Shown here: positions 1 to 31,518 of the stretch, piece by piece
Layout of the letters: each line of letters starts with the position of its first letter
How positions within the stretch are numbered: position 1 is the stretch's first letter
Source: a virus
Length of the DNA: 64,000 nucleotides
Direction: 5' to 3' (one strand)
IMG/VR virus record: IMGVR_UViG_3300034356_001232
Coordinates: 7,255 to 71,254 of that record
Notes under the pieces: generated by a model
What the model was told of the DNA's origin: nothing
Database searches by the model: none
What the model saw: the letters and a program-made list of their open reading frames with translations, nothing else
Made by a program: the position numbers and the translations under genes

Positions 1-246
1 GAAGGAGACTATACCATACTAATAGCAGATAGAGACATCAAGTTAAATTCAATTAATAACTTGGCGGCTGTATTAGTTCACGAGAGTCTACATCTAATGT
101 TTATAATGGAGGATGCAGTCTTTACGGAAAAGGAAGAAGAATATAGATGCTACTTGTACGAATTATCCTTCATCAAAAAACTACCAACCCCAGAGCCATG
201 GTTAACGGCAAATGCTTATGAAAAAATGCAATTATACAAACCATGA
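1..246 (+). CDS. 5'-truncated zincin-like (HExxH) putative metallopeptidase
   Basis: Frame is open from base 1 (EGDYTILIAD...LAAVLVHESLH...EEE). HESLH motif followed by a downstream Glu. ATGA overlap with the next gene. Confidence 0.6.
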   Translation, partial: EGDYTILIADRDIKLNSINNLAAVLVHESLHLMFIMEDAVFTEKEEEYRCYLYELSFIKKLPTPEPWLTANAYEKMQLYKP

Positions 247-2132
247 AAAAATCATACTCGCTTCTAGTAGGGTTATTCCTACTGACAGCTAGCCTCTTCG
301 GACAGAGTGCTAGTTCTTCTCCTGGCACCGGGCATTGGGTCGTAATCGACTCAGGTTATCAAGTAGCAACAACCACTGTTGGACAGACTGTTGCTCCTCT
401 ACACTTCTACAATACTTCTACATCTGAAAAGATTACAGGTATGCAGTACCGTGTATTCTATGACAACACTGCATTTACTGGTGTAGTTCCTTCCTTAAAG
501 ATTTCTACTTCAGACCAATACCTTCAGTACGTAGACAGTAACACACAAGGATTCTTAACTGTAACTTTAGCTTACACTGGATCTAGTGCTAGTTTTAACT
601 ACTCTAACGGAGCTACATTTGATTTAACCTTTACTCACGCTGCCGAAGCTGTATGGAACAACTTAGATTCTATCAAGACTTTGAAAGTAGCCGGTGTTAA
701 ATCATTCTCTAACAGGGCTGCCACTAACTGGGGTAATGATACTACTTTGGTAGTTTACTCTTATGGTGGTCGCTTCAATCAGAAAGTATTACGTTTTGCT
801 GCTAAGTTTAAAAACATTACTGGTTCTGATGCTAAGAACTTGTGGGTGTCTTTGGAAAAGAAATCCCCAACTGGTTCTTGGACTCATGTAGAAGCTAAAT
901 CAACTAACTCTTTAGGACATGTTGTATTCCGTAAATTCTTAGATACTACTTATTGGGATGTACGTATGGTAGTTAAAGGCGATACAATGATTCCAGGTAA
1001 CGTATTTTCTACTGCAGATGCACAGAAGATCAACCAAGCTATCTTAGCGCAATACACCCCATCAGGATTTGATTACTACACAATGGATGTAAACGGAACT
1101 ACTGGAGATATTTCTATCGCTGACGTATACTCTGTGTATGGACGTTTGGCAGGTAGATTCTCTAGCTGGCCTAACTCTAAGAAGGATGTAATGTTCTTCA
1201 CAGTTGCTGAATACAATGCAATTAATGGAGCCGCTACTAACTTGACTTCTACTTACTCTACAGTAAACAACTTTAACTACACTATTGACGGTAAAGATTC
1301 TATCACTTACTACGTGGCTGTTAAGGGAGATGCAAACTCTACTGGATTTAAGATGGCTCGTTTGACTCCAATCAAAATTATCAATCCAGCTAACGCTAAA
1401 AACTACATCATTGACAAAACTGTAAGTTATGATGATCCTACTTTAGAAACAGTAGAAATCAACATGCCTAAAGTAAAAGTAGAAGACGGCAACTTGGTAA
1501 ACGTACCAGTTAAAGTTTTGACTAACGGCAAAGACTTGGGTGCTCTTCAATTAGACCTTAAATACGATACTGCTTACTTAGAGTTTAAGAACGTAGAAGT
1601 AACCGAGAAAATTATGAAGTGGACTGCTTACACCAATCCTTCTAACGGGATTGTTTCTTGGGGAGGTGCAGACCTAACCAATGCTAATTTGCTGAAAGAT
1701 GGTGAGGCTGTGTTTACGCTTCAATTCATTGCTAAGAAACCTCAAGACTCTTGGGCTACTGCAGCAATCTGGACATCAGAAAAGTACGTAGGAGATGCTA
1801 AGGCTAAAGACATGAATATTACTCCTACTATGGGCATTATTGAGGTTCGTAGAAAAGGTGTAGTAAACCTTAACCAAGTAAGTGACTTGATTGCTTTTCC
1901 AAATCCTTCTGAAGGAGCTATTCAAGTTCAATTCAAGATAGCAGAAGAATCAGACGTTAACCTATCTCTTTACAACGAAGTAGGACAGATGGTTCAGAAT
2001 ATCTTAGACAAGCACATGCCTGTAGGAAACTACAAGTACAGTGTAGACTTGGAAAGACTTCCTGATGGAGTTTATATCTTAACCTTAAAGACTGAAAAAC
2101 AAGTCTTAGACTCTAAACTATTAATCATATGA
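243..2132 (+). CDS. Secreted cohesin/dockerin-like protein with T9SS C-terminal sorting domain
   Basis: SPI signal peptide. N-terminal cohesin-like segment (ITGMQYRVFYDNTAF), dockerin-like DVNGTTGDISIADV, second cohesin-like segment (VNVPVKV...LGALQLDLKYDTAYLEF). C-terminus FPNPS...LPDGVYILTL...KLLII is a type A T9SS CTD. Confidence 0.85.
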   Translation: MKKSYSLLVGLFLLTASLFGQSASSSPGTGHWVVIDSGYQVATTTVGQTVAPLHFYNTSTSEKITGMQYRVFYDNTAFTGVVPSLKISTSDQYLQYVDSNTQGFLTVTLAYTGSSASFNYSNGATFDLTFTHAAEAVWNNLDSIKTLKVAGVKSFSNRAATNWGNDTTLVVYSYGGRFNQKVLRFAAKFKNITGSDAKNLWVSLEKKSPTGSWTHVEAKSTNSLGHVVFRKFLDTTYWDVRMVVKGDTMIPGNVFSTADAQKINQAILAQYTPSGFDYYTMDVNGTTGDISIADVYSVYGRLAGRFSSWPNSKKDVMFFTVAEYNAINGAATNLTSTYSTVNNFNYTIDGKDSITYYVAVKGDANSTGFKMARLTPIKIINPANAKNYIIDKTVSYDDPTLETVEINMPKVKVEDGNLVNVPVKVLTNGKDLGALQLDLKYDTAYLEFKNVEVTEKIMKWTAYTNPSNGIVSWGGADLTNANLLKDGEAVFTLQFIAKKPQDSWATAAIWTSEKYVGDAKAKDMNITPTMGIIEVRRKGVVNLNQVSDLIAFPNPSEGAIQVQFKIAEESDVNLSLYNEVGQMVQNILDKHMPVGNYKYSVDLERLPDGVYILTLKTEKQVLDSKLLII

Positions 2133-2479
2133 AACTAAAAAACAAACTTGGCTTTGGCCAAGCAGAACCCGTAGCAGTACCAGATAACAATCGTTTCTAC
2201 TACATGCTACAACAGATGCAAGCTAACCGCTGGAGAATTACTGCCATTGTATTAGGTCTGTTTACTTTAATCATCGTAGGTATTAACTCTGCCGTGTTCT
2301 TTGGAGCATCTATCGGAGAAGACTGGAAAGAACTATTACTTATCCTTTTGGGTGCCTTTGTAGGTAACTTGAACAAAGTAGTTGACTACTGGTTTAACTC
2401 TGAAGACCGTGACAAAATGTTAATTCAGAAGGTCGATGAGGAGGATGGCGTATCTTTGTCTAACACAACTAACCCATAA
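2129..2479 (+). CDS. Two-TM membrane protein
   Basis: Two hydrophobic helices (ITAIVLGLFTLIIVGINSAVFF; ELLLILLGAFVGNL) followed by VVDYWF. ATGA-coupled to the upstream gene. Confidence 0.75.
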   Translation: MKLKNKLGFGQAEPVAVPDNNRFYYMLQQMQANRWRITAIVLGLFTLIIVGINSAVFFGASIGEDWKELLLILLGAFVGNLNKVVDYWFNSEDRDKMLIQKVDEEDGVSLSNTTNP

Positions 2480-2483
2480 TATC

Positions 2484-2801
2484 ATGTCAGAAGAACAAGA
2501 AGAAGGCGGAATGTCTGGAGTTAAAAAGGCAATTATCGGAGCCATCACTACCGCAGTAACTGCTGGTGGTGCTTGGTTTGCTACTACCTTAGGTGGTGGC
2601 GAAGATAAAGCCGAAGCTCCTGCAGCTGTGTCTGCACCCGCACCGGTGATTAACATCACTACGAACAACGAACAGAAGCAACAAGCAAACACTGGTGGCG
2701 GTGGCAACACTGTCATCATTAAAGAGAAAGCTGCACCAGCGGCTGCACCTGCTCCTGCTCCTGCCGCTAAACCTCAAGCAGATGAAGAAGATCCTTGGTA
2801 G
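2484..2801 (+). CDS. Small membrane-anchored Pro/Ala-rich protein
   Basis: Likely start is ATG 2484, after the upstream stop (track starts at 2436). One hydrophobic segment, PA-rich linker, ends EEDPW. Confidence 0.7.
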   Translation: MSEEQEEGGMSGVKKAIIGAITTAVTAGGAWFATTLGGGEDKAEAPAAVSAPAPVINITTNNEQKQQANTGGGGNTVIIKEKAAPAAAPAPAPAAKPQADEEDPW

Positions 2802-3471
2802 TCTATTATTGGTAATTCTTGTCTATGGTTGTGGCTCTATGAAGACCACAACCGAGGACGAGGTTATTGAGAAGGCAGACATCTCTACTGTATCTGGTTA
2901 CTCTGATTCTATCAAAAGAACAGTACAGGTAATCAGCATGGACATGACCAAAGTATTGGCTATGTATCCTGCATTACAGGAGAAGAATGTCGGACTTGGT
3001 TTTGCAGAATCCGTACTAGATTACTTAGATGAAACAAATCGTTTTGTATTTACTGAAGAGAAGGGTGAAATCAAGGAAAGGATGGTAACCCAATTCAAAG
3101 CTTCTAAAAAAGGAGTCTTTGAAGAACCCATCGACGGTAAGGGAAAGATCAAAGCAGCACAGTACTTTGTATACGTGACTGTAGCAGACTTTGCTGTAGA
3201 TGAAGATGAAACTGTAGAAGGAGCTAAAGCTAAAGTAGTAGTAACTACTTTTATCCGTTTGCAGGTTCGTTTTGTAGATGCAAAAACTGGTCAAATCTTT
3301 ATTGGCTCAGGAGAAGGGGAATCCACTAAAACCGGTGAATCTTTCTTGAAGTCTCTAGACGGAATGAAATTCTCGCAAAGCACAGTAGGTAAGGCTACCC
3401 GTAAATCACTTGAGACTGCATGTACCAAAGTGATTGAAAACCTTATCAAGAACGGTGTCTTTAAGAGTTAA
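2782..3471 (+). CDS. CsgG/HfaB-family lipoprotein
   Basis: Likely start ATG 2782 (MKKILGSLLLVILVYG-C, lipobox-like). L.ETNRF, GKIKAAQYFV, IRLQVRFVDAKTGQIF.GSGEG resemble the CsgG/HfaB/TolB-N fold. Confidence 0.75.
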   Translation: MKKILGSLLLVILVYGCGSMKTTTEDEVIEKADISTVSGYSDSIKRTVQVISMDMTKVLAMYPALQEKNVGLGFAESVLDYLDETNRFVFTEEKGEIKERMVTQFKASKKGVFEEPIDGKGKIKAAQYFVYVTVADFAVDEDETVEGAKAKVVVTTFIRLQVRFVDAKTGQIFIGSGEGESTKTGESFLKSLDGMKFSQSTVGKATRKSLETACTKVIENLIKNGVFKS

Positions 3472-4912
3472 AATATTGCTCTTGTTTTGTACGATAGGAC
3501 TGAGTTTAAAAGCTCAGTCCTTTACGTATAGCTACTTAGATCCGTGTACTAAGGAATTAAAGTTCATTAGTGCGGATATGAATACCCCAATAATGATTTC
3601 TTACTATGGACAGGTGAAAGCCTTTTCATACACAGAATTGCAAGATGGTACGTTTGACGCTTGGTTAAATTCTACCTACACAAATTTTCGTACAACCAAA
3701 CCTTGCGAAGGTGTACTAACAACCACGACTACTACGACTTCTACCAACACGGTAATGGGTTTAGTAAATAGTGTAATGACCTTGAACTCTTTGACGAGTT
3801 TAGACTTATCTTCGACATCTCTGGGATCAGGGACTTCTGTCGGAGGTACAACTACTTCCGGGACATCGGGAGTTAATGTAAAAACTAAAAATGAAAAACC
3901 GAACGACAAACCTAGTGGTGATGGAAGTAATAACACTACTAGTGGCTCTGGGAATACTTCTAGTTCAGGTGACCAATCATCTGGACAAGGATCCGTGGGG
4001 TCGTCGGAAGGACAAGTAGGAAACAATGGAAACGGAAACAATGGTGGAAATACTGAAGGCAGCGGGTCTTCTAACTCTGGGAGTAGTTCTGGGAGTGGTT
4101 CTAGTTCTTCTTCTGGTAGTAGTGGCAATGGTTCTGGCGGAGGGAGTGGTAACGGTGGTGGAGTGGATAAGAAGCCTGAAGAAAAAACTCCTGAAAAAGT
4201 AGAGGAGCAAAAAACTGAAACTCAAAAAGCTGGAGGAAATAGTACAGCAAAAGCTGCTGCTAAGGGTAAAGTAGAAACTCAAAAACCGGCTATTCTAGTT
4301 ACCGGTGATATAGTAGGAATCCAAACTGCTAGAAGTGACAAACAAGATGCAAGAGGTACAATGTCATTCACTCGTGTTCGAGGAGACGGTACAGCTTCCA
4401 TTGGTTTGTCTGCCGATTACATGGTTAACGCCAGGATAGGAAATATCGGAGGCATCAAATCTTGGATTGGCACCAATCAAAAAGGCTACAAACACATTAA
4501 CGTATTATCTGCTGGCTTAGGGTTAATGCCTAAGTCATATACCTCATCTTTACTTTTTGTAAGGGTGAACTCAATGAAGAACTTTACAGCCCTTTATGGA
4601 GCTGCCGGTTCTTATGGTAAGTTGTTTGAGGAAGAACTTATCTCCACCATGCTAATAGGTGGTTTCATGTACAAGGGTCAGATCTCTAAGCATATCGATG
4701 CAACTATCATTGCTGCGGCAGTCTATGCCCCGTACACAAAATATTACACAGAGAGTTTGTTTAAAAGCAGACCTATCATAGTTCCCTTCTTAAACATTAA
4801 CTACTCAATCACAAAGACATTTAAGTTTGGTTTGACTGGGGGAGGAACTTACATAGCGAACCAAGACGTAGTCAACTATCAGATCTTAATGGGAGGTAAG
4901 CTTAAGATATGA
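3434..4912 (+). CDS. Secreted protein with Gly/Ser-rich linker and putative C-terminal outer-membrane beta-barrel
   Basis: Signal-like ILLLFCTIGLSLKAQ, long G/S/N low-complexity region, C-terminal alternating amphipathic strands ending YQILMGGKLKI. Start codon uncertain. Confidence 0.65.
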   Translation: MKTLSRTVSLRVKILLLFCTIGLSLKAQSFTYSYLDPCTKELKFISADMNTPIMISYYGQVKAFSYTELQDGTFDAWLNSTYTNFRTTKPCEGVLTTTTTTTSTNTVMGLVNSVMTLNSLTSLDLSSTSLGSGTSVGGTTTSGTSGVNVKTKNEKPNDKPSGDGSNNTTSGSGNTSSSGDQSSGQGSVGSSEGQVGNNGNGNNGGNTEGSGSSNSGSSSGSGSSSSSGSSGNGSGGGSGNGGGVDKKPEEKTPEKVEEQKTETQKAGGNSTAKAAAKGKVETQKPAILVTGDIVGIQTARSDKQDARGTMSFTRVRGDGTASIGLSADYMVNARIGNIGGIKSWIGTNQKGYKHINVLSAGLGLMPKSYTSSLLFVRVNSMKNFTALYGAAGSYGKLFEEELISTMLIGGFMYKGQISKHIDATIIAAAVYAPYTKYYTESLFKSRPIIVPFLNINYSITKTFKFGLTGGGTYIANQDVVNYQILMGGKLKI

Positions 4913-6102
4913 GGTGGATTATTCTTCTATTCTTGTTTGCAAGCCCTCTGGTGGCACAATTTACTTATTCTGGATACTTGTATAACGCAAATGGTTCTGG
5001 TGCCTCTAACGTGGCTGTGAAACTTTTTAAAAGTACAGCAGGGGCAACTACAAAGACAGGGACGCTAACTAAGATAACATCAGGTATTCCTTCTGATAGA
5101 GGGAGAGGAACTTCTGTTCTGCATTCAACAGCCAACACAGATGAAAAGTCAATTGCCATAACTATTCCTTTTACAGTAAGTTATGCAGGTACAAACTACA
5201 CAAGTGGACATGTTAACGCTAACTCTTGGTTTTCTTTTGGAACAACGTCTAGTTCGGGTTATAACGGAAACGCAACAAGTCCCAATCAACCCACTATCCA
5301 TATCGGATCGGTAGATAACAGTTCTACAGATAACAACGTTTCTTATGTTTCAACTGAACGATATACAGACGGGACTTATGGAGATGTGTTTAGAGTTAGG
5401 TATGAGGGAAACTGTAAGTACAATCAAACAGGAATCAATTATGTTTGGGATTTGTATCTTATCAAAGACTCATCAAAACAAATAGTGGTTTGGAGAACAT
5501 TCACAGCTGATGGCTCAAATCAAGAACAAATGGGTATATCTACAGGCAGTGCTTGGATGGCAAGTACGTTAGTTACTGCTGGAACCTTTGCTAGTACTAG
5601 CTGGAAAATAACCTCTACGTCAACTACAACAACTTCGTCTAGTTCTTTAGATGCTACAGCGTATACTAACTCGTCAGGGTATTATTCTTTCTCAAGAACT
5701 ACAGTTGCAGGGAATCAATTTACAATCCAAGTAGATGCCCCTACTAGAATCCAAGCCTACTTAACGACAGATGTCCAAGCCGTAGCAAATATCATCTTAA
5801 ACAAAGACGCTAGGAATGGGTTATCCTTTCACATGTTTGACGTAAATGACGACAAGATAATTTCTGTTGCCGATAAGTATTATGTGGCAGCAAGAAAAGC
5901 TGGGAGATTTTCTAAATGGAGAACGGCACCAGATGTTCGTATCTTTACAACCACAGAGTACAATGCTATTAAAGCTGCCACAACAAACGTAAGAACAACC
6001 TACCCAGGAGTCACTAATCATACAACCTCAACCTTAACTAGTGGCGGGACTTTAAATTTATACATCATAGCTCCCGGCTATGCAGGACAAGTAACTTACT
6101 AA
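4909..6102 (+). CDS. Secreted dockerin-like domain protein (partial paralog of 243..2132)
   Basis: Signal peptide. FDVNDDKIISVADKY..ARKAGRFSKW...EYNAI aligns by eye with MDVNGTTGDISIADVY..RLAGRFSSW...EYNAI of ORF 243. Confidence 0.75.
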   Translation: MRWIILLFLFASPLVAQFTYSGYLYNANGSGASNVAVKLFKSTAGATTKTGTLTKITSGIPSDRGRGTSVLHSTANTDEKSIAITIPFTVSYAGTNYTSGHVNANSWFSFGTTSSSGYNGNATSPNQPTIHIGSVDNSSTDNNVSYVSTERYTDGTYGDVFRVRYEGNCKYNQTGINYVWDLYLIKDSSKQIVVWRTFTADGSNQEQMGISTGSAWMASTLVTAGTFASTSWKITSTSTTTTSSSSLDATAYTNSSGYYSFSRTTVAGNQFTIQVDAPTRIQAYLTTDVQAVANIILNKDARNGLSFHMFDVNDDKIISVADKYYVAARKAGRFSKWRTAPDVRIFTTTEYNAIKAATTNVRTTYPGVTNHTTSTLTSGGTLNLYIIAPGYAGQVTY

Positions 6103-6103
6103 A

Positions 6104-6547
6104 ATGAAAACTATACTATTCACCCTCGTATCCTTAATGGCTCTTAACCTTCAAGGACAATCCTACAAAGTAGACTCAGTAACATCTACAGCTAGTGTAA
6201 CTGATATTGCTGGTAGACCAATTACATTCGGTGCACAAACAACCCTTGAGCAGTTGATTGCAGACAAATTTAGTTTGTCCGACACAGGTCAAATTGTAAA
6301 AGTGCAGATTTACTCTATTGCAATGCCAGAAGAATTGGTCAACATTATTGGCATCCAATTACTGAAGAGAGATTACATTGTTTCTGTTAGACTGTCAGTA
6401 GGAGATAAAGTTTACGAAGCCCAAGCCAAGAAACGAGTGTTTGTCAATGCAATGTTCTTGACAGTCGAGCAAATCCCCCACAACAAAAAGGCCTATTCAA
6501 AAGCGTTGGAGAAGTCTTTAGCTGTAGCTGTTGCTCAGATGAAATAA
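6104..6547 (+). CDS. Secreted hypothetical protein
   Basis: SPI signal peptide (MKTILFTLVSLMALNLQGQ). Last gene of the tightly packed operon. Confidence 0.75.
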   Translation: MKTILFTLVSLMALNLQGQSYKVDSVTSTASVTDIAGRPITFGAQTTLEQLIADKFSLSDTGQIVKVQIYSIAMPEELVNIIGIQLLKRDYIVSVRLSVGDKVYEAQAKKRVFVNAMFLTVEQIPHNKKAYSKALEKSLAVAVAQMK

Positions 6548-6586
6548 TATACTCCTTCCAGAAACGAAAAATCTATTAGATTTTGT

Positions 6587-6815
6587 ACCGTTTGTAACTT
6601 ATAGTGCAGCAGTTTTGACCAAATGGATTTCTCCAAGTCTCTGTTGTGTCCACTTATTGCCTGGGGTCGCCAGGTCAGAGCACTGCACATTTCGTTAATA
6701 ACGTTTTGACACTATCGGAGAAACCTCTTTTCATCTCTAGGATTACTCATACATCCGACTTCTGACCTGCTACCTACCATAAGCCCTCACAGGTGATCGT
6801 ATTGAAACGGTGTCG
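6587..6815 (-). ncRNA. Candidate structured non-coding RNA (~230 nt)
   Basis: ORF-free segment immediately downstream of a consensus minus-strand promoter. Ends are complementary (6587-6593/6805-6811) and there are several internal 6-9 bp inverted repeats. Confidence 0.5.
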
Positions 6816-6818
6816 CTG

Positions 6819-6849
6819 CAAATATAGAAAGAAAATTGAATGGAGCAAA
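6819..6849 (-). promoter_or_regulatory. Bacteroidota sigma70-type promoter (-33 TTTG / -7 TATATTTG)
   Basis: Plus-strand CAAATATA 6819-6826 and CAAA 6846-6849 read as TTTG-N19-TATATTTG on the minus strand. Confidence 0.75.
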
Positions 6850-6852
6850 GAA

Positions 6853-7119
6853 TTAATCTCCGGCAGCTACCTGAGCAGTGCTACTGTCAGTTCTCTGTGA
6901 GGGCATAGTGTCATACAAAAGCGTGTCAACGGTAAGGAAGACAAACTCATACAGTAGCTTGTCCTTGTACTCCATACCTCGAATGTATCTTTTGAATGAC
7001 TTGTAGAGATTTTTACTAAACACTTCCAGTTCTCCTGCTAGTCCTATCTCGTATTCTTTTAACTCATCAACGAGAAGTTCTACCAATTGTTTTTCTGTAG
7101 GGATCTTAGTTTTTTTCAT
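6853..7119 (-). CDS. Hypothetical protein (only convincing minus-strand gene)
   Basis: 88-aa ORF in otherwise non-coding space, preceded by a minus-strand TATATTTG (7134-7141). Confidence 0.65.
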   Translation of the reverse strand: MKKTKIPTEKQLVELLVDELKEYEIGLAGELEVFSKNLYKSFKRYIRGMEYKDKLLYEFVFLTVDTLLYDTMPSQRTDSSTAQVAAGD

Positions 7120-7133
7120 GCAAGTCTCCTGTA

Positions 7134-7141
7134 CAAATATA
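7134..7141 (-). promoter_or_regulatory. -7 element TATATTTG for 6853..7119
   Basis: Plus-strand CAAATATA. No clear -33 box. Confidence 0.5.
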
Positions 7142-7213
7142 CTTTTATTTCAAAATTTGTCTATTAATCTTTTAAGTTAAGATAGAATTAATCTACAAGA
7201 TTATAACTTTAAA

Positions 7214-7244
7214 CTTGACTTTTTTTATTAGAATAGTATATTTG
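7214..7244 (+). promoter_or_regulatory. Bacteroidota promoter CTTG-N19-TATATTTG
   Basis: CTTG 7214-7217, TATATTTG 7237-7244, upstream of the packaging operon. Confidence 0.75.
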
Positions 7245-7260
7245 TCTAAAACCAACCGAA

Positions 7261-7602
7261 ATGAAAGTCGCAAGAAAATACGAAGAAGGAGTCCAACTAC
7301 ACCAGTCATACATTGATATCTTGACTAGATTAGCTGGATACAGGTTGTCAGATTTACATACTAGTATCTTAGGTTACAGTTCTTACTTTGGAACTATTAA
7401 CAAAGAAATCAAGGATGAGCTGGCTTCCAAGAACAACACTTCTTCACAAGTTATTGCTAACGCAATTACCAAGTTAAGAAAGTTAGGATTACTGGAAAAG
7501 AATGTGATTAACAAAAAACTATCCCCGAACCAAAAAGAGACAGCTTCAATTACATTGTTACTAAGTACCGCCAAGAATAAAGAAAATGCCACGATCTCTT
7601 GA
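7261..7602 (+). CDS. Putative winged-HTH DNA-binding protein
   Basis: ELASKNNTSSQVIANAITKLRKLGLL is an HTH-like pattern. Confidence 0.6.
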   Translation: MKVARKYEEGVQLHQSYIDILTRLAGYRLSDLHTSILGYSSYFGTINKEIKDELASKNNTSSQVIANAITKLRKLGLLEKNVINKKLSPNQKETASITLLLSTAKNKENATIS

Positions 7603-24449: not shown

Positions 24450-25285
24450 TGAAGTACGAAAATATAAACTTCATATCATCGGAACCTTTGGTTGCCGAGG
24501 TAAAGCAGGAACTGAAGCATTATTTTGAGGCAGGTGCTATTAGTGAGGTTTTGATTCCTACTTTCATAGACCAGTCTTTGCGTAAGCTTAAGGTTATGGT
24601 TCTCCAACCGGAGGATATCATCTGCCACTTTGTTAACTACAAGTCAGAGCTTCCGTGCGATTTTGCACTTTTGGATAGGGCTGCATTGTACGACTCTCAC
24701 ATAGAGTTTAACTCAGGTATCACTACTATGAAAGGCTACTACTACCAGTCAAGTGATTGCACTTTTAGTGGCGAGTGTTGCAGTGGTAAGACCGAATACT
24801 TTGAGCAGATATTCACAAGTGCTCCCGGCTTTAGGATTAGCATGAAACTTCCAAAACCTGTTCGTATTTATCACGGGTCAAAAGCTTTATGCACTGAAGA
24901 GTGTACAGGTCTGTATGCTCCAGGGCCAGACATTATTCAAATCCACGACAACAGAACTCTTTCTGCTTCTTTTGAAACAGGCTGTATTTATGTAAGATAC
25001 TTTTCTAGACCTAGTGATGATGACGGTATTCCAAAAGTACCTGAAATCCTAGAGGTGGAAGAATACATCAAGTCTTATCTTAAGTTTAAATTCTTTGAAA
25101 TGCTATGGCATTCTCAGTTAGACGAGTCTGCTGCACAGATTGAACGTAAGTTTCAATACTATAAGCAAGATCAATTGGGTAAGTTACAGGCAGCGTTTAG
25201 CTACTTGTTGACCAAGACCAAACAGCAGAGTGCAGATAGCGTTGTTAAGGCACGTAATAAGTTTAGCAAATTTCACATCATTTAA
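24449..25285 (+). CDS. Tail tubular (P22 gp4-like) ring protein
   Basis: ELPCDF, SFETG.I..RY, DDDGIP.VP, YIK.Y motifs. Between the IHF-like and stabilization genes. Confidence 0.75.
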   Translation: MKYENINFISSEPLVAEVKQELKHYFEAGAISEVLIPTFIDQSLRKLKVMVLQPEDIICHFVNYKSELPCDFALLDRAALYDSHIEFNSGITTMKGYYYQSSDCTFSGECCSGKTEYFEQIFTSAPGFRISMKLPKPVRIYHGSKALCTEECTGLYAPGPDIIQIHDNRTLSASFETGCIYVRYFSRPSDDDGIPKVPEILEVEEYIKSYLKFKFFEMLWHSQLDESAAQIERKFQYYKQDQLGKLQAAFSYLLTKTKQQSADSVVKARNKFSKFHII

Positions 25286-28200
25286 TGGAAAACAAAGTAA
25301 ATCAGAATATCATTGGGCTTAATCTAGACTCTATTAACTGGCAGGTTAAGGAGAATCAGATTACGTGGGCGTTGAATGCTAACGTCCAGTCTCATGATGG
25401 CAATTCTATTACTTATACAAATGAACCTGGTAATACCGAGTGTTATACTTTTGACACAGGAAACTTAGCAGGATTTGTAGTTGTTGGATTTTTAAATATT
25501 GTTGAGCAATCTAAGGTTGTTTTGTTCCTAAGTCATCCTGACGGAAGATCTCGTATAGGTTCAATTACTTCTATCAATGATTCTTGCTTAGACATAGAAA
25601 TAACTGAGAAAGATTGTGGCTGTAAAGAAGGTACAATTATTCAAGAAGCAACTGTTGTAGAAAGTTTACCTGAGCCGGTAACTACATTAGTTTGTCCAGA
25701 GGGATTTACATTTAACCCAGACACACTTCAGTGCGAACAACTATCTTACACAGTAATTAATGAGAATGGAATTACCTACAATGCCATAGAAAGTTGTGTA
25801 AACGGTAGTCCTTGTGGAGTAGTATCTACTCATGGTTGTCTATTACCTAAAGTGTATGCAAGCAACTGGACTACATTAACACCTCCTGACTATGCTTCAA
25901 TAGCAACTGAACTTACACAACAGTTTTGGATTCCTAACGATACTTTGCCTCCAGATCCTATCTTCAATAACAGTACATATGTTAAGACCATTGCTGTACA
26001 GGCTGATTTAGATCCTACAAACGTTTCTTGCAGAACTTGTCACACAATACCTACTACTAGCGTAATACCTTCTGGTTGGATTGGATTTGCAGAAACTGTC
26101 TGTATCACACAAACAAAAGAATATTTCTTAGCGGTTAGTGCGGACGATTCTCTTCGAGTTTTTATCGATGGAGTAATTGTCTTGGACATTGACGCTAACG
26201 ACCCTACTAAAAGATTATACAATGCTGCACCACCACTTGGAGGAGACAACGGGTCTACTATGTGGTCAAGGCTTAATATCTTCCCGATTACCATTACTTC
26301 AGGAAGTCACGTATTTAGATTTGAGTACAAGAATACCGCAGGTATAGGAATGTTTGCCTACGAGCTGTATGACATGACTCTTGCTGAGTTGTTGTCAGTT
26401 AGTAGTGAAGTAAACCTAAGATCTAAGATAGTATTAAGTAACGGCAAACAAATCAGTTCAAAACCTAAACGCCCTATAAGTGCTGGAGGAGAAGGAGCTG
26501 CTTTCATAGAACTAACTAATGCTTGTCCTGATGGTTATGAACTTGTAGTAGATGAGAACTGTGCGCCTATCTGTAGAGCTATTCTGGAAACAGAAAGAAT
26601 AGCAGTATCAGGTATTGCTACTTGTTGTAAGTACGAAGACATTATTGTTGACGATTGTTTAGACGAATGTCCTAATAGTTGTGTTGAGTACGTACTCGAT
26701 TATGTTGCTGATGCGGTTTATTCTAATCCAGCAATTACGGACCCACAGGCTAGCATTCCTAAATACTTCAGATACATTGACTGTGACGGTAACCCAGTTA
26801 CAGATAGTATCTTAACTACCTCTAAGAGATTTACAGCGAGAAGAGGTACTTTGGAACTAGACAGTATCTACTTGGCAATTGTACAAGAGAGTTCAGTTCC
26901 AGATTCTACAACTGGAACTTTTGCTAAAACCAACTGCTGTTTAAATTTTGATCCTGCTTTCCCAGTAAATGCAGAGTATCGCATAGATGACTGTGAAACC
27001 AAAGTTTATTATATTAGTCGGAATAATCCACCTCGCTATTTTTCTACACTGTATCCTTATGGAAAAGACTCCTGTGGGAACAATCGTTCTTGCATTAAAG
27101 AAAGCTGCGAAGATTCTAAGTTGTTTCCTGATTTCTGCATTCCAGAAACTCACATAACAGCTGTTACAAGCGGAGGTCAGTTGGCTGCCGGTATGTATTC
27201 TTTTGCCGTAGCATACGCTGACGAGGGAGGAATCGAGCTAACAGACTACTCAGACTTAACTAATGGTATTCCAATCTTTGAAAGAGCAATTAGTGAGCAG
27301 ACAGAATACGTTACTGCTAAGTCTATCAACGTACAGATTAATCACAAGACTCGTATATTTGAGTACTTCAATCTGATTGTAGCTGAGAACATCAATACTA
27401 CAACTACCTACCACTTAGTAGGTACTTTCCGAGTTAATCAATACACAGACCAAGATAGCGTTATCTACACAGGAGATTACAAGTCAACCTTCTCGTCTAT
27501 TGTTCCTTTGATTCGTAGTCCTCATTATGAAACTGCAAATATTATCGAGAAGCAGAATGATATCTTGATGCTTGCAGACCTTGAGGAGTATCCTAAGTTT
27601 AACTTCCAACCGTTTGCCTCTAGGATTAAATTACTTTGGGAAACTGTTGAGATGCCTGCCGATGGACAATTTGATTACAGTAATCCTGAGATATCTTACT
27701 TCTTCCGCACATACCAACGTGATGAGGTTTATCCTTTTGGAATCAAGTTCCGTCTAAAGAATGGTAAGTACACAGATGTATTCCATATCCCCGGACGACT
27801 TGTTACCGGCAATGACCTAGATGTAGAATACTCAGCAACTAACAAAGATGTTTTTGTTGGAGAAACTGATTGTACTATCCCTACTGAATTACCTAGGTGG
27901 AAAGTATACAACACAGCCGGCATCGGGTCTAGCGTACCTTTAGATCCAGCACAAGCTACTGATGTTGAAAAACAATACAGTTGTGCTATCACAGTAAAGC
28001 ATCGTGGAGAATTTGCATATTGGGAATCTACCGAGACCTATCCTTGTTACGATGAGGTATGGGGACAGTCAAAGAATCCTAACGCACCCTACTACGATCC
28101 AGAGGCTTTGGGTGGTAAACCTATTCGTCACCACAAGTTCCCTGACTCTGCCGTTACCCACATCCACGATAATAAGATTGCTAGTGGAGGACAGTTCTCA

Positions 28201-31200
28201 GCAGCAGTAACAAACGACTCTAAAACTTACCTCTATCCTATCGGGGTACGAGTAGATGAAGCTGTCATAGTTTCTTTGCTTAACCAGAAAAATCCAGATG
28301 GTACTTACGCTTACACAGTGTATGATCCAATCCGTCGTATCGATGTTCCTGTTAAGGACGTTGTCTGTGGTTTTGAATTGGTACGTGGCAATCGTGTAGG
28401 CAATAAGTCAGTTATCGCAAAGGGTTTAATGTATGATGTTGGAACCTACGAGGATAACTCAGGAGACGGTCCAATCAAAAAATACTACTACTCAAACTAT
28501 CCTTACAATGATTTAAGGACAGATCCTTATTTGATGAATGACAATCGTTGGTATAATGAACCAATGAAGACTTTGTTGTTCGAAGATCCTACAACTGTAG
28601 GTGCCGTAGGAGGATTCTCTACTGTGCCTATCATAGGAAACAATAGATTTACTTTCTACTCGCCTGACACTTCTTTCCAGTATCCTAAGATTGGTACAGA
28701 GTTGAAAGTAGAAACCGTAGAGTTTGGTCGTGTGCTTGGACACTTTGTTCCTGTAGCCGAACATCCTCGTTATAGATTACTACAAGACTCTGCTTACTTT
28801 GATGCAGGTGCCGTAGCTGGTTTACTTTCTTTTGAGTATGAAGGTAAGTCAGGTGTGGATGCTACAGTTACCGGTGGAGTTAAATCTGAGGGAGGTATTA
28901 AGATTCGCTACGACCAATTACTCATCAATGAGCAATTGATTCTTGACATTCTTGAGAAGGTAATTCCTTTTGTAAATTTTGCTTACCAGTACAATTCTAT
29001 CGCTACTTATAACCAATACGTTGCTGTAGGTTCTACAACCCACAAAGGAAATACCCGTAGATACATTGACCTTGGCTACTATGCTAATGAAAGAATTGTT
29101 CAAGTATTTGACGATGCTCCATTGCATAACCGTCTGAGAGAAACTTCTGTTTACCTTAAGTTACGTGATTACATTCAAAACCTTGAGTCTCAGTTAATAG
29201 ATGACTCTCGTTACATCGGTAGTGATCACGGTGATGCTGTAGAGGTTTTGCATGATAAGAGATTTACTCGTGCCTACTACACTTCTATCAAGCGTCAGTT
29301 TCCTAACCAATACGGAATAGTAGACAATCTTAAGTATGTGTCTATCGGACAAACGAAAGATATTATCCTAAGAACAGACGGTACTGCAGAGCTAAGCTTT
29401 AATTACTACCCTGCATTCGGAGGTGATACTTTCATAACTCCTTTTGCTCTGAAGCGTAAGCATGCTTTCTTTACTCGTAACCTAGTTAACCTTCCTGCCA
29501 AACAAGATGGTATGCCTTTTGACTACTGGTTGTCTCCTAACATGGGATATCCTAAATACTTCTTAGGTACATCTAGTAATATTAATAACCTTACGGGAAT
29601 GGATATTGTGTTTGGAGTAGCGGGAGTAGTTGCAGGTATAGCTGCATCTGCACTAGGTTCATCTGCTGCCGGCATAGTTTTGGTAGCATCTAGTATTGTT
29701 GCTAACCAACTTACCATGTTTGGAATTAACTCTGTATGGTCTAAGTTCAGCAGTAAGACTGCATTGGACGGTGCATCTACTAGTTTTGCAAACCGTTACT
29801 TCAAGGATGGTAGATTCTACACAGCCTCTTATGGTATTCCTATTTTCTACGTAGAGTCTGATATTAATACTCACTTTAGATTTGGTAGAGACACAGACAA
29901 AGAAAACTTCTACCCTAACGTAGGTGGAGGAGTTCCTGACGAATGGTTGCAAGAGACTACGGTTCCTATTAGATTTGATAACTTCTATCACTACAACGGA
30001 ACTTATTCTGCTCAAAACTTGAGTCCTAACTTCCCTTACAGATTAAAGTATCCTAACCTTGAGTGTTTAGTAAATCACCAAAACCGTGTAATCTATTCAG
30101 ACCAAGCAAGTAAGTCTAATCTTCTTTCTGATAAGTGGTTGTCTTATAGACCAGGCAACTATTATGATTTCCCGAAACAAGGTGGTCGCTTAATTGACTT
30201 GAATGCTGGAGAGAGTGAAAAGGTTTATGCTCGCTTCGAGAATACCACTAAGGTTTACAATGCACGTATCGTGCTTAGTTCTACTTCTCCTTACCAGTTA
30301 GAGATTGGTAATGCGGATATGTTTAAACAGAAGCCTGTTGACTTATCTACTACGGATCTTGGTTACATTGGATCTCAACACAAAGCTTACGTGAGAACTG
30401 AGTACGGAACATTCTGGGTAGATGCCAAGCGTGGTCACGTATATCAAATCACCGGAGCAGGATTCAACGAAATTAAGTCTGAGCTTAACTTTAACTGGTT
30501 CAAAGAAAACCTACCATTCCAGATTCTTAAAGATTTCCCTGAAGCAGATACAGACGTACCTTCTTTGGGACTAGGAATTGTAATGGGATGGGACGAAAGA
30601 TTTGAAAGAGTATTTATTACTAAGTTGGATTACCGTGTTCTTCCTGCATACAGGACCGGCACAACAACCATAGAATACATTACAGACAGACTTGATATTA
30701 ACTACAGGTATTATGTCTTGAAGACTCCTACCGCAGTAACCAGAGTAAGACTCGGCAATCCTGTTTACTTTGAGAATAAATCTTGGACAGTAGCTTATGC
30801 TCCTAAACTTAAGAACTTTATCTCTTTCTACTCCTTCTTACCGAACTTCTTTATCTCGCAGTTAGGACACTTTCAAACTATTGTAAATACTCCTGCAGGT
30901 GCATCACTTTGGAATCATAACCTTAACCCATACATCTACCAAACTTACTACGGCAAGTTGTATCCGTACATTATTGAGTACGTGGTTAATAGTCTTCCTA
31001 TGCAATCAACAGTTACCTCTGTTACTATTCTTTCTGACATCCTAGAATACTATTCTAAATACGAGTACTATTCACTTGGAACAAGTAACAATACTAACTT
31101 AGCTAACTTTAACAAGGCTATCATCTACAACCGTGAGCAGTCTTCTGGATTAATTAATTTGATTCCTGAAACTTTTGGTAACACTAAGCAAAAAATAATG

Positions 31201-31518
31201 TATCCAAGAATGACCACTAGCGGTATTGAATCACTACTATCTCGTAGGGAAGGTAGATCTACCTTTAATGGTTTCTGGAACATAGCTGCTCAGGGAAATG
31301 GCCAGTCATTGTGGACTAATCAGTGGACAGACTTATCAGCAAATTATCCTATTGATAAGTTGCCAAACATGAAAGCCATCCGAAACGTAGGATTATCTTA
31401 TCAGAAGAATAAAATAAAATCTGACTTCACTAGGGTAAGATTAATTCAAGATAAGTACAATAGATATAAATTTGTGAATAACATTCAGATTAATCAAACA
31501 AATCAAACTGCCTTATAA
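25285..31518 (+). CDS. Tail stabilization / muzzle protein (P22 gp10-like) with Cys-rich insertion
   Basis: GLNLD...ALNA...TNEPGN N-terminus, YQRDEVYPFGI, IRHHKFP, FGGDTFI, SWTVAY...FISFYSFLP. Confidence 0.85.
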   Translation: MENKVNQNIIGLNLDSINWQVKENQITWALNANVQSHDGNSITYTNEPGNTECYTFDTGNLAGFVVVGFLNIVEQSKVVLFLSHPDGRSRIGSITSINDSCLDIEITEKDCGCKEGTIIQEATVVESLPEPVTTLVCPEGFTFNPDTLQCEQLSYTVINENGITYNAIESCVNGSPCGVVSTHGCLLPKVYASNWTTLTPPDYASIATELTQQFWIPNDTLPPDPIFNNSTYVKTIAVQADLDPTNVSCRTCHTIPTTSVIPSGWIGFAETVCITQTKEYFLAVSADDSLRVFIDGVIVLDIDANDPTKRLYNAAPPLGGDNGSTMWSRLNIFPITITSGSHVFRFEYKNTAGIGMFAYELYDMTLAELLSVSSEVNLRSKIVLSNGKQISSKPKRPISAGGEGAAFIELTNACPDGYELVVDENCAPICRAILETERIAVSGIATCCKYEDIIVDDCLDECPNSCVEYVLDYVADAVYSNPAITDPQASIPKYFRYIDCDGNPVTDSILTTSKRFTARRGTLELDSIYLAIVQESSVPDSTTGTFAKTNCCLNFDPAFPVNAEYRIDDCETKVYYISRNNPPRYFSTLYPYGKDSCGNNRSCIKESCEDSKLFPDFCIPETHITAVTSGGQLAAGMYSFAVAYADEGGIELTDYSDLTNGIPIFERAISEQTEYVTAKSINVQINHKTRIFEYFNLIVAENINTTTTYHLVGTFRVNQYTDQDSVIYTGDYKSTFSSIVPLIRSPHYETANIIEKQNDILMLADLEEYPKFNFQPFASRIKLLWETVEMPADGQFDYSNPEISYFFRTYQRDEVYPFGIKFRLKNGKYTDVFHIPGRLVTGNDLDVEYSATNKDVFVGETDCTIPTELPRWKVYNTAGIGSSVPLDPAQATDVEKQYSCAITVKHRGEFAYWESTETYPCYDEVWGQSKNPNAPYYDPEALGGKPIRHHKFPDSAVTHIHDNKIASGGQFSAAVTNDSKTYLYPIGVRVDEAVIVSLLNQKNPDGTYAYTVYDPIRRIDVPVKDVVCGFELVRGNRVGNKSVIAKGLMYDVGTYEDNSGDGPIKKYYYSNYPYNDLRTDPYLMNDNRWYNEPMKTLLFEDPTTVGAVGGFSTVPIIGNNRFTFYSPDTSFQYPKIGTELKVETVEFGRVLGHFVPVAEHPRYRLLQDSAYFDAGAVAGLLSFEYEGKSGVDATVTGGVKSEGGIKIRYDQLLINEQLILDILEKVIPFVNFAYQYNSIATYNQYVAVGSTTHKGNTRRYIDLGYYANERIVQVFDDAPLHNRLRETSVYLKLRDYIQNLESQLIDDSRYIGSDHGDAVEVLHDKRFTRAYYTSIKRQFPNQYGIVDNLKYVSIGQTKDIILRTDGTAELSFNYYPAFGGDTFITPFALKRKHAFFTRNLVNLPAKQDGMPFDYWLSPNMGYPKYFLGTSSNINNLTGMDIVFGVAGVVAGIAASALGSSAAGIVLVASSIVANQLTMFGINSVWSKFSSKTALDGASTSFANRYFKDGRFYTASYGIPIFYVESDINTHFRFGRDTDKENFYPNVGGGVPDEWLQETTVPIRFDNFYHYNGTYSAQNLSPNFPYRLKYPNLECLVNHQNRVIYSDQASKSNLLSDKWLSYRPGNYYDFPKQGGRLIDLNAGESEKVYARFENTTKVYNARIVLSSTSPYQLEIGNADMFKQKPVDLSTTDLGYIGSQHKAYVRTEYGTFWVDAKRGHVYQITGAGFNEIKSELNFNWFKENLPFQILKDFPEADTDVPSLGLGIVMGWDERFERVFITKLDYRVLPAYRTGTTTIEYITDRLDINYRYYVLKTPTAVTRVRLGNPVYFENKSWTVAYAPKLKNFISFYSFLPNFFISQLGHFQTIVNTPAGASLWNHNLNPYIYQTYYGKLYPYIIEYVVNSLPMQSTVTSVTILSDILEYYSKYEYYSLGTSNNTNLANFNKAIIYNREQSSGLINLIPETFGNTKQKIMYPRMTTSGIESLLSRREGRSTFNGFWNIAAQGNGQSLWTNQWTDLSANYPIDKLPNMKAIRNVGLSYQKNKIKSDFTRVRLIQDKYNRYKFVNNIQINQTNQTAL

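Follow-up and report, generated by a model that had tools for sequence, protein, structure and literature searches.

We analyzed a 64,000-nucleotide (nt) stretch of viral DNA (hereafter, the window), corresponding to bases 7255–71254 of the 71,254-base IMG/VR virus record IMGVR_UViG_3300034356_001232 (CheckV completeness approximately 60%). Eight plus-strand open reading frames (ORFs), designated genes A to H, occupy window positions 1–6547 and constitute an envelope module of a lake-water crAss-like phage that is neither a part of the virion nor host DNA. The module adjoins holin-like and endolysin genes, so that lysis or egress is no less likely a role for it than display on the cell surface. 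We tentatively favor a reading in which the products form a late-acting, envelope-spanning complex that helps to breach or detach the outer membrane (OM) or to control release, in conjunction with lysis or egress. The reading is favored because the module travels with holin-like and endolysin genes and because D and E have the topology and the overlapping-gene layout of spanins.

Linkage of the module to lysis genes

Two groups of related loci were collected. Search patterns for B matched 96 IMG/VR stretches, of which 93 encode a relative at 69–99% identity, and 80 loci of this window clade were kept. A distant search was performed with a small alignment of E and its nearest relatives outside the clade; it returned at least 600 candidate viral stretches, at least 559 of them with an E relative, and 80 distant loci were kept, in which E is 38–49% identical to that of the window.

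An endolysin gene lay beside the module in 135 of the 160 loci of both groups. Of the 80 distant loci, 65 have an endolysin-family gene at most 2.5 kb from the module, often 3–600 nt away, and 47 have a holin-like gene at such a distance (up to 2.5 kb). The endolysin families near the module were lys212-type, PG_binding_1+GH19, Amidase_2, and Peptidase_M15_3. In the window clade, a lys212-type endolysin gene was found directly upstream of A in 50 of 80 loci (36 with gaps of 3–91 nt, 14 with a gap of 675 nt), and a GH19-type endolysin gene directly downstream of H in 20 of 80, mostly with holin-like genes; two further clade loci, on truncated contigs, showed holin-like genes only. The neighborhood is kept while the side and the family of the endolysin change.

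The 7.2 kb on the 5' side of the window (locus L002) carries two tail-fibre-like genes encoding proteins of 871 and 621 amino acids (aa). They are followed by a gene for an 87-aa protein with two hydrophobic segments, termed holin-like from its size, topology, and place only, then by a gene for a 212-aa endolysin-like protein (phrog_3000, 6.1e-37; phrog_33083 "endolysin", 2.6e-11), and directly thereafter by gene A. The 871-aa protein (L002:1296–3911) has an N-terminal Mtd_N domain (PF18454, 8.5e-8). On the 3' side of the module, genes for a large terminase (phrog_6681, 4.5e-96), a portal protein (phrog_6547, 9.3e-92), and a crAss-type major capsid protein (PF23898 Crass_capsid, 2.8e-30) were identified. 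The phage-borne nature of the cluster, asserted in a first-pass annotation made from the sequence alone, is upheld by these capsid, terminase, and portal genes downstream and by the tail-fibre-like and endolysin-like genes upstream.

Conservation of the module in the window clade

Presence of the module genes in the 80 clade loci was examined by tblastn. A was found in 71 loci, B in 80, C in 68, D in 77, E in 76, F in 71, and H in 60; the holin-like gene was found in 48, the endolysin gene in 50, and the terminase gene in 27. True orthologues of G (≥45% identity) were present in 58 of 80. Most of the misses were short contigs. Every one of the 27 loci extending to the endolysin gene as well as to the terminase gene has the gene order of the window, and the order B, D, E, F was kept in 71 of 80. 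E was the most conserved gene of the module, with 73–100% identity in the 76 of 80 loci holding it, and identities ranged over 48–99% for A and 35–99% for H. B, G, A, and H were far more variable than E and C.

Near-identical DNA (half or more of the sampled words) was detected in 16 runs labelled lake water or metagenome. Contigs from four of four lake-water runs covered all 30 bins and bridged the junction at 6547–7261, the place at which the first-pass annotation had proposed to look for a chimera, with 0 differences. In a collection of one genome per species (185,579 species), a relative of E was found on one contig only, a 16.5-kb piece of a metagenome-assembled genome (MAG) labelled Sphingomonadaceae, at 86% identity. 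The guanine-plus-cytosine (GC) content was 0.39–0.41 in the module and 0.36–0.41 elsewhere. No match to the 6.5-kb module was obtained by blastn against GenBank phages.

Distribution of the module in distant phages

Gene clustering and hhalign of the distant loci revealed a core order of an H-like gene (cluster c3, 75 members), a B-like gene (c0, 91 members), a small lipoprotein gene (c4 or c11), a D-like gene (c7 or c8), sometimes a C-like gene (c10), an E gene (81 members), and an F-like gene (77 members). The H-like gene is upstream of the B-like gene in these phages, unlike in the module of the window phage, where H comes last. By tblastn, 63 of the 80 distant loci encode the N-terminal domain of F (aa ~10–91) immediately downstream of the E-like gene, and the distant F-like proteins have the same three-part build with barrel-type C-termini. 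The first-pass annotation had made its account depend on whether the genes co-occur in other phages; they do so on 93 close and at least 559 distant viral contigs, with the core order kept.

No homologue of G was found in the 80 distant loci at the threshold used. In L135, L138, L142, L155, and L163, a shorter B-family protein of 367 aa with a DINKNGRVYIDD loop is encoded directly after the F-like gene, that is, at the place of G, so that the layout B...F-G exists in part of the distant group too.

The domains recognized in 85 distant B-like proteins were Cohesin in 43 (E-value ≤0.01), Por_Secre_tail in 9, GEVED in 5, Lectin_C in 4, PA14 in 2, and GLEYA in 1, and most of these proteins terminate with a cohesin domain. 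B-like genes that lack the sorting domain are followed by a gene for a small lipoprotein, whose C-terminal part aligned weakly to the sorting domain of B (hhalign 37–39%, E-value ~3e-4). In the small lipoproteins of c4 and c11 (L116:6075–6440, L134:6753–7112), acidic residues directly follow the lipobox Cys, which we take to resemble the surface-export signal of Bacteroidota lipoproteins. Because a type IX secretion system (T9SS) domain occurs in only 9 of the 85 proteins, the T9SS route is one variant, and hijacking of the T9SS is not the purpose of the conserved core of the module.

A signal-peptide-bearing Endonuclease_NS protein (2.9e-39) is encoded between the E-like and F-like genes in L132, L139, L143, L153, and L154; such a gene was also observed at L164:5202–5780 and directly upstream of the module in Flavobacterium phage vB_FspM_immuto (hereafter, immuto).

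A crAss capsid was present in one of five complete or near-complete carrier genomes (65–178 kb). Among 50,697 GenBank phage records, a relative of E was found in 4, all of immuto, the only cultured carrier, whose host is Flavobacterium sp. LMO8. The block in immuto, in the gp012–gp018 region, is annotated as a nuclease, a C-type lectin, a hypothetical protein, a cohesin protein, and three hypothetical proteins. Since carriers occur with and without a crAss capsid and the cultured one is a Flavobacterium phage, the module is a mobile unit tied to a host group, probably Flavobacteriia, and not to a phage family.

Searches against PHROGs gave no named family for A–H or for 9 of 10 neighboring cluster representatives; the remaining one (c17) weakly matched a holin family. 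No PADLOC defence family matched any of the nine proteins scanned.

Genes E and H

The lipobox of E is LVYGC, and its Cys17 was invariant in 30 of 30 aligned orthologues. By itself, E scored 14.4 bits against CsgG (PF03783), below the cut-off of 20.8 (E-value 0.024), and a PDB profile search with the E orthologues alone gave no match. An E-family profile search among 1.84 billion representatives returned 173 representative clusters at E-values ≤1e-3. Of 47 aligned E relatives, 21 matched CsgG PF03783 (best 3.7e-23) and 8 matched LpoB. The E-family profile (alignment A4) matched E. coli CsgG structures in the PDB over residues 1–194 (E-value 5.1e-5). These results support the assignment of E to the CsgG/LpoB superfamily at the profile level.

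CsgG has two membrane hairpins and forms an oligomeric pore. Its alignment with E ended at profile position 185 of 232, before the second hairpin, and the stretch of E aligned to the first hairpin is acidic (DEDETVE). E comprises 229 aa versus 277 aa in E. coli CsgG and is thus 48 aa shorter. An AlphaFold model of E, built from a shallow set of 30 orthologues at ≥82% identity, had a predicted local distance difference test (pLDDT) score of 38. No csgA/B/E/F-type gene was detected among A–H by Pfam or NCBIfam. Some distant relatives of E are fusions to caspase-like or kinase domains, which suggests that the E domain serves generally as a periplasmic module and does not mark curli. The description of E as CsgG/HfaB-like in the first-pass annotation therefore stands at the level of the superfamily by profile, whereas the single-sequence score is below the cut-off and a CsgG-type pore is unsupported. 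A fusion of a CsgG-like domain and a barrel, P0256, was considered as a "Rosetta stone" and dropped as unrelated to the F barrel. One contig of lake run X5 (depth 5.8) omits 87 nt at the start of E (window 2790–2876).

H aligned with the distant cluster c3 (hhalign 97.2%, E-value 4.7e-11), and c3 aligned with the E-family alignment A4 (95.5%, 1.6e-8). H compared directly with A4 gave no match (hhalign probability 1.4%), and the link runs via c3. As H is homologous to c3 and c3 matches the E family, the module holds two CsgG/LpoB-like domains, the second being H, a putatively secreted protein.

Gene F

Alignment A2 revealed that F consists of a signal peptide, an N-terminal domain of ~65 aa with two Cys residues, a low-complexity linker of ~190 aa rich in Ser, Gly, Asn, and Thr, and a barrel. 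The N-terminal domain is the part of F that is recognizable in distant phages. The AlphaFold2 model of the barrel, built from 73 sequences of both phage groups, had 12 strands, a mean pLDDT of 81.4, and a predicted template modelling score (pTM) of 0.72. Foldseek with this model returned 97 PDB chains at E-values ≤1e-3, including KdgM (7.5e-6), NanC, NalP, and FapF. With VIA-align, the barrel matched KdgM at Z 20.4, with a root-mean-square deviation (rmsd) of 2.3 Å over 165 residues, NalP at Z 19.6, and FapF at Z 19.2; NalP, FapF, EstA, and NanC ranged over Z 18.9–19.6, and the NalP, EstA, AIDA-I, and BrkA translocators over Z 18–20. The overall rmsd was 2.3–3.3 Å and the identity 4–10%. The barrel-like C-terminus read from the letters in the first-pass annotation is confirmed, in the model, as a predicted 12-stranded OM barrel.

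The model contains neither a helix inside the barrel nor a plug, and the 35 residues ahead of the barrel are disordered. Neither F nor its C-terminal 228 aa matched any Pfam family, Autotransporter included, and a PDB profile search with F returned low-complexity noise only. For the barrel, Atlas yielded a single hit, Porin_O_P at rank 23, which counts as a lead only. An hhalign comparison of F barrels between the two phage groups aligned only the last 46 columns (probability 26%); homology of the barrels across the groups rests on the common architecture and position. In four of four lake runs, the contigs broke with the same loose end at position 5518 of L001 (window 4018, in the F linker), which points to allelic length variation in the low-complexity linker.

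Genes B and G

B comprises a putative signal peptide, a first cohesin-like stretch, a small beta-sandwich with a sub-threshold match, an EF-hand-like domain shared with G, a second cohesin, and a T9SS type-A C-terminal sorting domain. Its N-terminal signal, MKKSYSLLVGLFLLTASLFG/QSAS, was read by eye and was not flagged in a 19-residue hydropathy window. The sorting domain exceeded the cut-offs of both TIGR04183 (37.4 bits, cut-off 23) and PF18962 Por_Secre_tail (43.7 bits, cut-off 27). By sequence, B qualifies as a genuine T9SS type-A cargo, and both the cohesin (PF00963) and the sorting domain ascribed to it in the first-pass annotation are found above cut-off.

The segment common to B and G was 37% identical over 123 aa by BLASTP (E-value 4e-15). 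It is helical, with an EF-hand-like loop DVNxDxxIxxAD, of which alignment A3 shows one canonical 12-residue version in G, DVNDDKIISVAD, and a 13-residue version in B. For B aa 221–343, the loop motif reads DVNxxGxIxxAD. The segment upstream of the loop retains only the last Asp and the helix. Type I dockerins consist of two duplicated Ca-binding loop-helix segments; this pair is absent in B and G, which have a single canonical loop instead. The isolated segments of B and G did not match Dockerin (PF00404) at E-values ≤10, this family matched 0 of the 85 distant B-like proteins, and a profile of 30 B and G segments returned no dockerin chain, and no match at all, from the PDB. The paralogous domain that the first-pass annotation had seen in the two proteins is real; its dockerin identity has no profile support, and "dockerin-like" denotes a resemblance at the level of the motif only.

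G comprises a signal peptide, an N-terminal part without a family assignment, and the domain common to B, and its length varies from 265 to 401 aa among relatives. For the N-terminal part, Atlas gave weak leads only, the best (0.79) being NIDO on 12–14% of cluster members.

Genes A, C, and D

A has a signal peptide and an HES.HL motif. Residues H97, E98, S99, H101, E116, and E117 were invariant in 28 aligned orthologues, and the motif was also found across 49 orthologues. The best Pfam matches, SprT-like and Tox-MPTase2, were weak (E-value 0.18), and a PDB profile search with A gave no match. A is a candidate small secreted peptidase of the zincin type. Homologues of A were not found in the 80 distant loci at the threshold used, and A is confined to the phage clade of the window.

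C is strongly conserved, with a hydrophobic span at aa 34–63 and a second, shorter one seen by eye, and is probably an inner-membrane protein. It is homologous to the distant cluster c10 (hhalign 99.9%); its PHROG matches were weak and to families without an assigned function.

D has an N-terminal membrane segment rich in Gly, Ala, and Thr, an extended Ala/Pro-rich region, and a conserved acidic-Pro-Trp C-terminus. Its start and end were conserved in 55 orthologues, and it is homologous to the distant clusters c7 and c8 (hhalign 96.4% and 99.8%, respectively). The conserved Gly/Ala/Thr-rich segment was not flagged in the hydropathy scan. These features make D a candidate inner-membrane tether. 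Insertions of ~1.9–2.5 kb between C and D were located from tblastn coordinates in L009, L022, L024, L037, L038, L040, L070, and L077.

Gene layout and flanking sequences

The positions of the genes and domains are listed in Table 1. From the ORF coordinates, the junctions in A–H are overlaps of 4, 4, 20, 38, and 4 nt and otherwise gaps of 1–4 nt. In a hydropathy scan with a 19-residue window, A, C, E, F, and G were flagged for hydrophobic spans, either N-terminal or internal; in B, D, and H, shorter N-terminal hydrophobic stretches without a flag were judged by eye. The tight packing of eight genes with signal peptide, lipobox, or transmembrane features, as first described, is borne out by the coordinates, the scan, and partly by eye. 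In A, B, F, G, and H, the sequence reads Gln directly after the likely cleavage site. This pattern is described for substrates of Bacteroidetes signal peptidase I in PMC5837995, and PMC10367356 notes it in Porphyromonas phages.

Table 1. Genes and domains of the envelope module, in window positions.
Feature	Position	Strand	Remarks
Gene A, 3' part	1..246	+	Full 151-aa protein is L002:7045–7500, beginning 210 nt upstream of the window
Gene B, 629 aa	243..2132	+	
B aa 43–155, first cohesin-like stretch	369..707	+	PF00963 E-value 6.7e-4, 20.3 bits, below the cut-off of 24.1
B aa 221–343, domain common to B and G	903..1271	+	
B aa 405–534, cohesin	1455..1844	+	PF00963 E-value 6.3e-12, 46.3 bits, above the cut-off of 24.1
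B aa 552–628 (of 629), T9SS type-A sorting domain	1896..2126	+	PF18962 3.4e-11; TIGR04183 1.9e-9
Gene C, 116 aa	2129..2479	+	
Gene D, ~105 aa	2484..2801	+	Conserved MSEE start likelier than the ORF start at 2436
Gene E, 229 aa	2782..3471	+	20 nt overlap with D
Gene F, 492 aa	3434..4912	+	
F aa 28–95, N-terminal domain	3515..3718	+	Invariant Cys38 and Cys91; alignment
F aa 287–492, predicted 12-stranded beta-barrel	4292..4909	+	AlphaFold2 and fold searches
Gene G, 397 aa	4909..6102	+	
G aa 253–370, domain common to B and G	5665..6018	+	
Gene H, 147 aa	6104..6547	+	

The region 6548–7260 is the transition from the module to small genes ahead of the terminase gene. It comprises ~300 nt free of ORFs and then a reverse-strand 88-aa ORF (6853–7119), which is present only in the two closest loci, L011 and L061. 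An Rfam scan of window 6400–7400 gave no match near threshold, a tRNA scan found none in the window, and a scan for promoters and terminators was below shuffle expectation. Four giant plus-strand ORFs at 25285–31518, 39923–46489, 46528–55188, and 55210–61092 (2077, 2188, 2886, and 1960 aa) presumably represent the large virion-cargo/RNA-polymerase block expected in crAss-like phages.

A proposed late-acting complex in the envelope

According to the favored reading, the host Sec system would export the products of the module into every layer of the envelope. C and D would reside in the inner membrane, with D as a long Ala/Pro-rich periplasmic tether ending in the acidic-Pro-Trp tail. H would be periplasmic, and E would be an OM lipoprotein of the CsgG/LpoB fold. 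The barrel of F would lie in the OM and its two-Cys N-terminal domain, on the long disordered linker, on the periplasmic side, as the usual topology of even-stranded barrels places an N-terminal extension there. B, of cohesin/lectin type, may reach the cell surface via its T9SS domain in the window phage, and G carries one of the B domains. The tethers of D and F would permit bridging of both membranes, and the complex would assemble late and act once the endolysin has cut the wall.

Position and topology agree with a spanin pair: D has an anchor segment, E has a lipobox, the two genes overlap by 20 nt, and lysis genes are near. Several observations weigh against a role in lysis. Spanins are known as a coiled-coil i-spanin and a short proline-rich o-spanin; E carries a 212-aa globular domain unlike the latter, and D is Ala/Pro-rich and shows no evident coiled coil. 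Neither D nor E matched a PHROG of the lysis category. It is not obvious what a cohesin/lectin-type protein bearing a T9SS sorting domain would do in lysis. Beside the endolysin gene, certain distant phages encode other spanin-like candidates (c30 and c44), each with an N-terminal anchor and a coiled coil read by eye. In immuto, the module adjoins ribonucleotide reductase and nuclease genes, with the annotated endolysin gene ~8 kb away, and ribonucleotide reductase genes are on the other flank of the module in many distant loci. Moreover, the synteny of relatives is inherited, so that the 135 of 160 loci are not independent and the independent support amounts to a few distinct arrangements. 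In other phages, too, accessory genes collect next to lysis cassettes, lambda bor being an example.

A narrower form of this lysis or egress reading, which we regard as rather unlikely, is that D (with C), E, H, and the tethered F form a multi-protein OM device that replaces the two small spanins of lambda, the cohesin/lectin protein coupling it to surface glycans or to a T9SS-built surface coat. If true, this would be a lysis device without a described counterpart, shared by hundreds of uncultured aquatic phages that belong to several families.

Alternative explanations

Display on the surface of the infected cell is somewhat unlikely and is the most serious of the alternatives. Host systems, namely Sec, lipoprotein sorting, the beta-barrel assembly machinery, and in this clade the T9SS, would place B, with G docked, on the infected cell, where E and F would anchor or help them; the purpose could be receptor masking, exclusion of other phages, prevention of progeny adhering to debris, or adhesion of cells. 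The genuine type-A sorting domain at the extreme C-terminus of B argues for this, as do the carbohydrate-binding and adhesin-type domains in the 85 distant B-like proteins (GEVED, Lectin_C, PA14, and GLEYA), the C-type lectin gene inside the immuto block, and the small lipoprotein that follows B-like proteins without a sorting domain and whose C-terminal part aligns weakly with that domain. The greater variability of B, G, A, and H relative to E and C is as expected for host-facing parts. A phage-encoded T9SS cargo is already published (PMC7468147), and phage resistance in Flavobacterium is reported to map to gliding and T9SS genes. However, only 9 of the 85 distant B-like proteins, most of which end with a cohesin, carry the T9SS domain, the dockerin call by which G would dock fails, and no PADLOC defence family was found among the nine proteins scanned. 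Surface display also leaves the inner-membrane proteins D and C and the steady linkage to holin and endolysin genes unexplained.

It is improbable that E and F form a phage-encoded OM channel dedicated to export or anchoring, akin to curli, Fap, or type V systems, for B-like proteins without a T9SS signal or for the N-terminal domain of F itself. The membership of E in the CsgG superfamily fits such a machine, and so do the matches of the F barrel to FapF (Z 19.2) and to NalP, EstA, AIDA-I, and BrkA (Z 18–20) and the autotransporter-like order of F, with the N-terminal domain, the long linker, and the C-terminal 12-stranded barrel. E and F are also the most constant neighbors, the N-terminal domain of F following E both in the 63 distant loci and in the window clade. 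Against this, E aligns to the CsgG profile only as far as position 185 of 232, falls 48 aa short of E. coli CsgG, and is acidic in its first-hairpin stretch. The cluster holds no curli or Fap subunit gene by Pfam or NCBIfam, and the barrel has neither an in-barrel helix in the model nor an Autotransporter Pfam match, while the porins KdgM and NanC score equally high.

We consider it about equally improbable that the genes are loose accessory genes (morons) without a joint machine, such as scavenging or adhesion factors (lectins or a secreted nuclease), gathered at an insertion-tolerant site by the lysis genes. G and A are clade-specific, insertions of ~2 kb occur between C and D, and Endonuclease_NS lies between E and F in some loci, all of which would suit morons. 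The core order H-like, B-like, D, E, F is nevertheless kept at 38–49% identity of E, with and without a crAss capsid, E remains 73–100% identical in 76 of 80 clade loci while A falls to 48%, and the overlaps between genes resemble those of one translationally coupled unit. The chance that the module is a host chromosome flank, a prophage-host junction, or an assembly chimera is practically nil: composition alone cannot exclude it, and one bacterial MAG contig carries an E relative, but phage genes lie on both sides, the order is kept in 27 of 27 loci, the junctions are bridged in four of four independent lake runs, and that single contig among 185,579 species compares with at least 559 viral contigs.

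Comparison with known systems

The module is common (93 close and at least 559 distant viral contigs, and 16 lake-water runs) and nearly absent from cultured phages. The existence of a cultured carrier makes the question directly testable, and either outcome would fill a gap in the understanding of how Bacteroidota phages cross the OM of the host and alter its surface, with a new lysis or egress device or with a conserved remodelling of the infected-cell surface. The most conspicuous feature of the module, its T9SS signal, is an optional one.

No description of the module was found in the literature, though the supplementary gene tables of the immuto and Cryophage papers might mention it, and no paper combining a crAss-like phage and CsgG was found. 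Phage-encoded T9SS cargo is already known (PMC7468147), and so are phage-encoded OM barrels in BFVD, in which 20 entries matched the F barrel at E-values ≤1e-3, none of them described with the architecture of F; the conserved module itself was not found described. "Cryophage" (Bellas et al., 2020; PMC7468147) is a Bacteroidota phage with T9SS type-A sorting domains on presumed cargo of the host system. These cargoes are an endoglucanase, a GH39 protein, and a PA14 protein, which reside in flexible islands and vary between phage variants. The two cases share a variable, phage-encoded T9SS type-A cargo. They differ in that the cargo here is a cohesin protein in a fixed multi-gene envelope module, most relatives of which have no sorting domain.

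The module resembles two-component spanins such as lambda Rz/Rz1 (PMC6139136) in the overlapping genes for a putatively inner-membrane-anchored D and a lipoprotein E near the holin and endolysin genes, and in the long tethers from both membranes (D and the F linker), which could meet in the periplasm. Unlike spanins, it comprises four or more additional conserved proteins, among them a barrel and a cohesin protein, and A–H have no sequence similarity to spanin families, as no lysis-category PHROG was matched. E is like the curli protein CsgG in its lipobox and in the profile alignment to CsgG residues 1–194, and unlike it in being shorter and below the Pfam cut-off, in its unaligned second hairpin, and in the lack of csgA/B/E/F-like genes in the module. 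The C-terminal 206 aa of F, as a predicted 12-stranded barrel, resemble the KdgM and NanC porins, the NalP, EstA, and BrkA translocators, and FapF, and the N-terminal domain and linker ahead of the barrel recall type Va systems and FapF; the identity of 4–10%, the absence of a Pfam match, and a model without a plug or linker helix set F apart from these barrels. With the cohesin-dockerin pairs of cellulosomes, the module shares a cohesin above the cut-off in B and a helical segment with one DxNxDxxIxxxD loop in B and G; it differs in the absence of a Dockerin_1 match and in the single canonical loop in place of a duplicated pair. T5 Llp, lambda Lom and Bor, and Cor are phage-encoded OM lipoproteins and barrels, produced in infected cells, that act in exclusion or conversion, and some of them adjoin lysis genes. 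These are single genes, whereas the module is a conserved unit of six to eight genes, the products of which are predicted to extend across every layer of the envelope.

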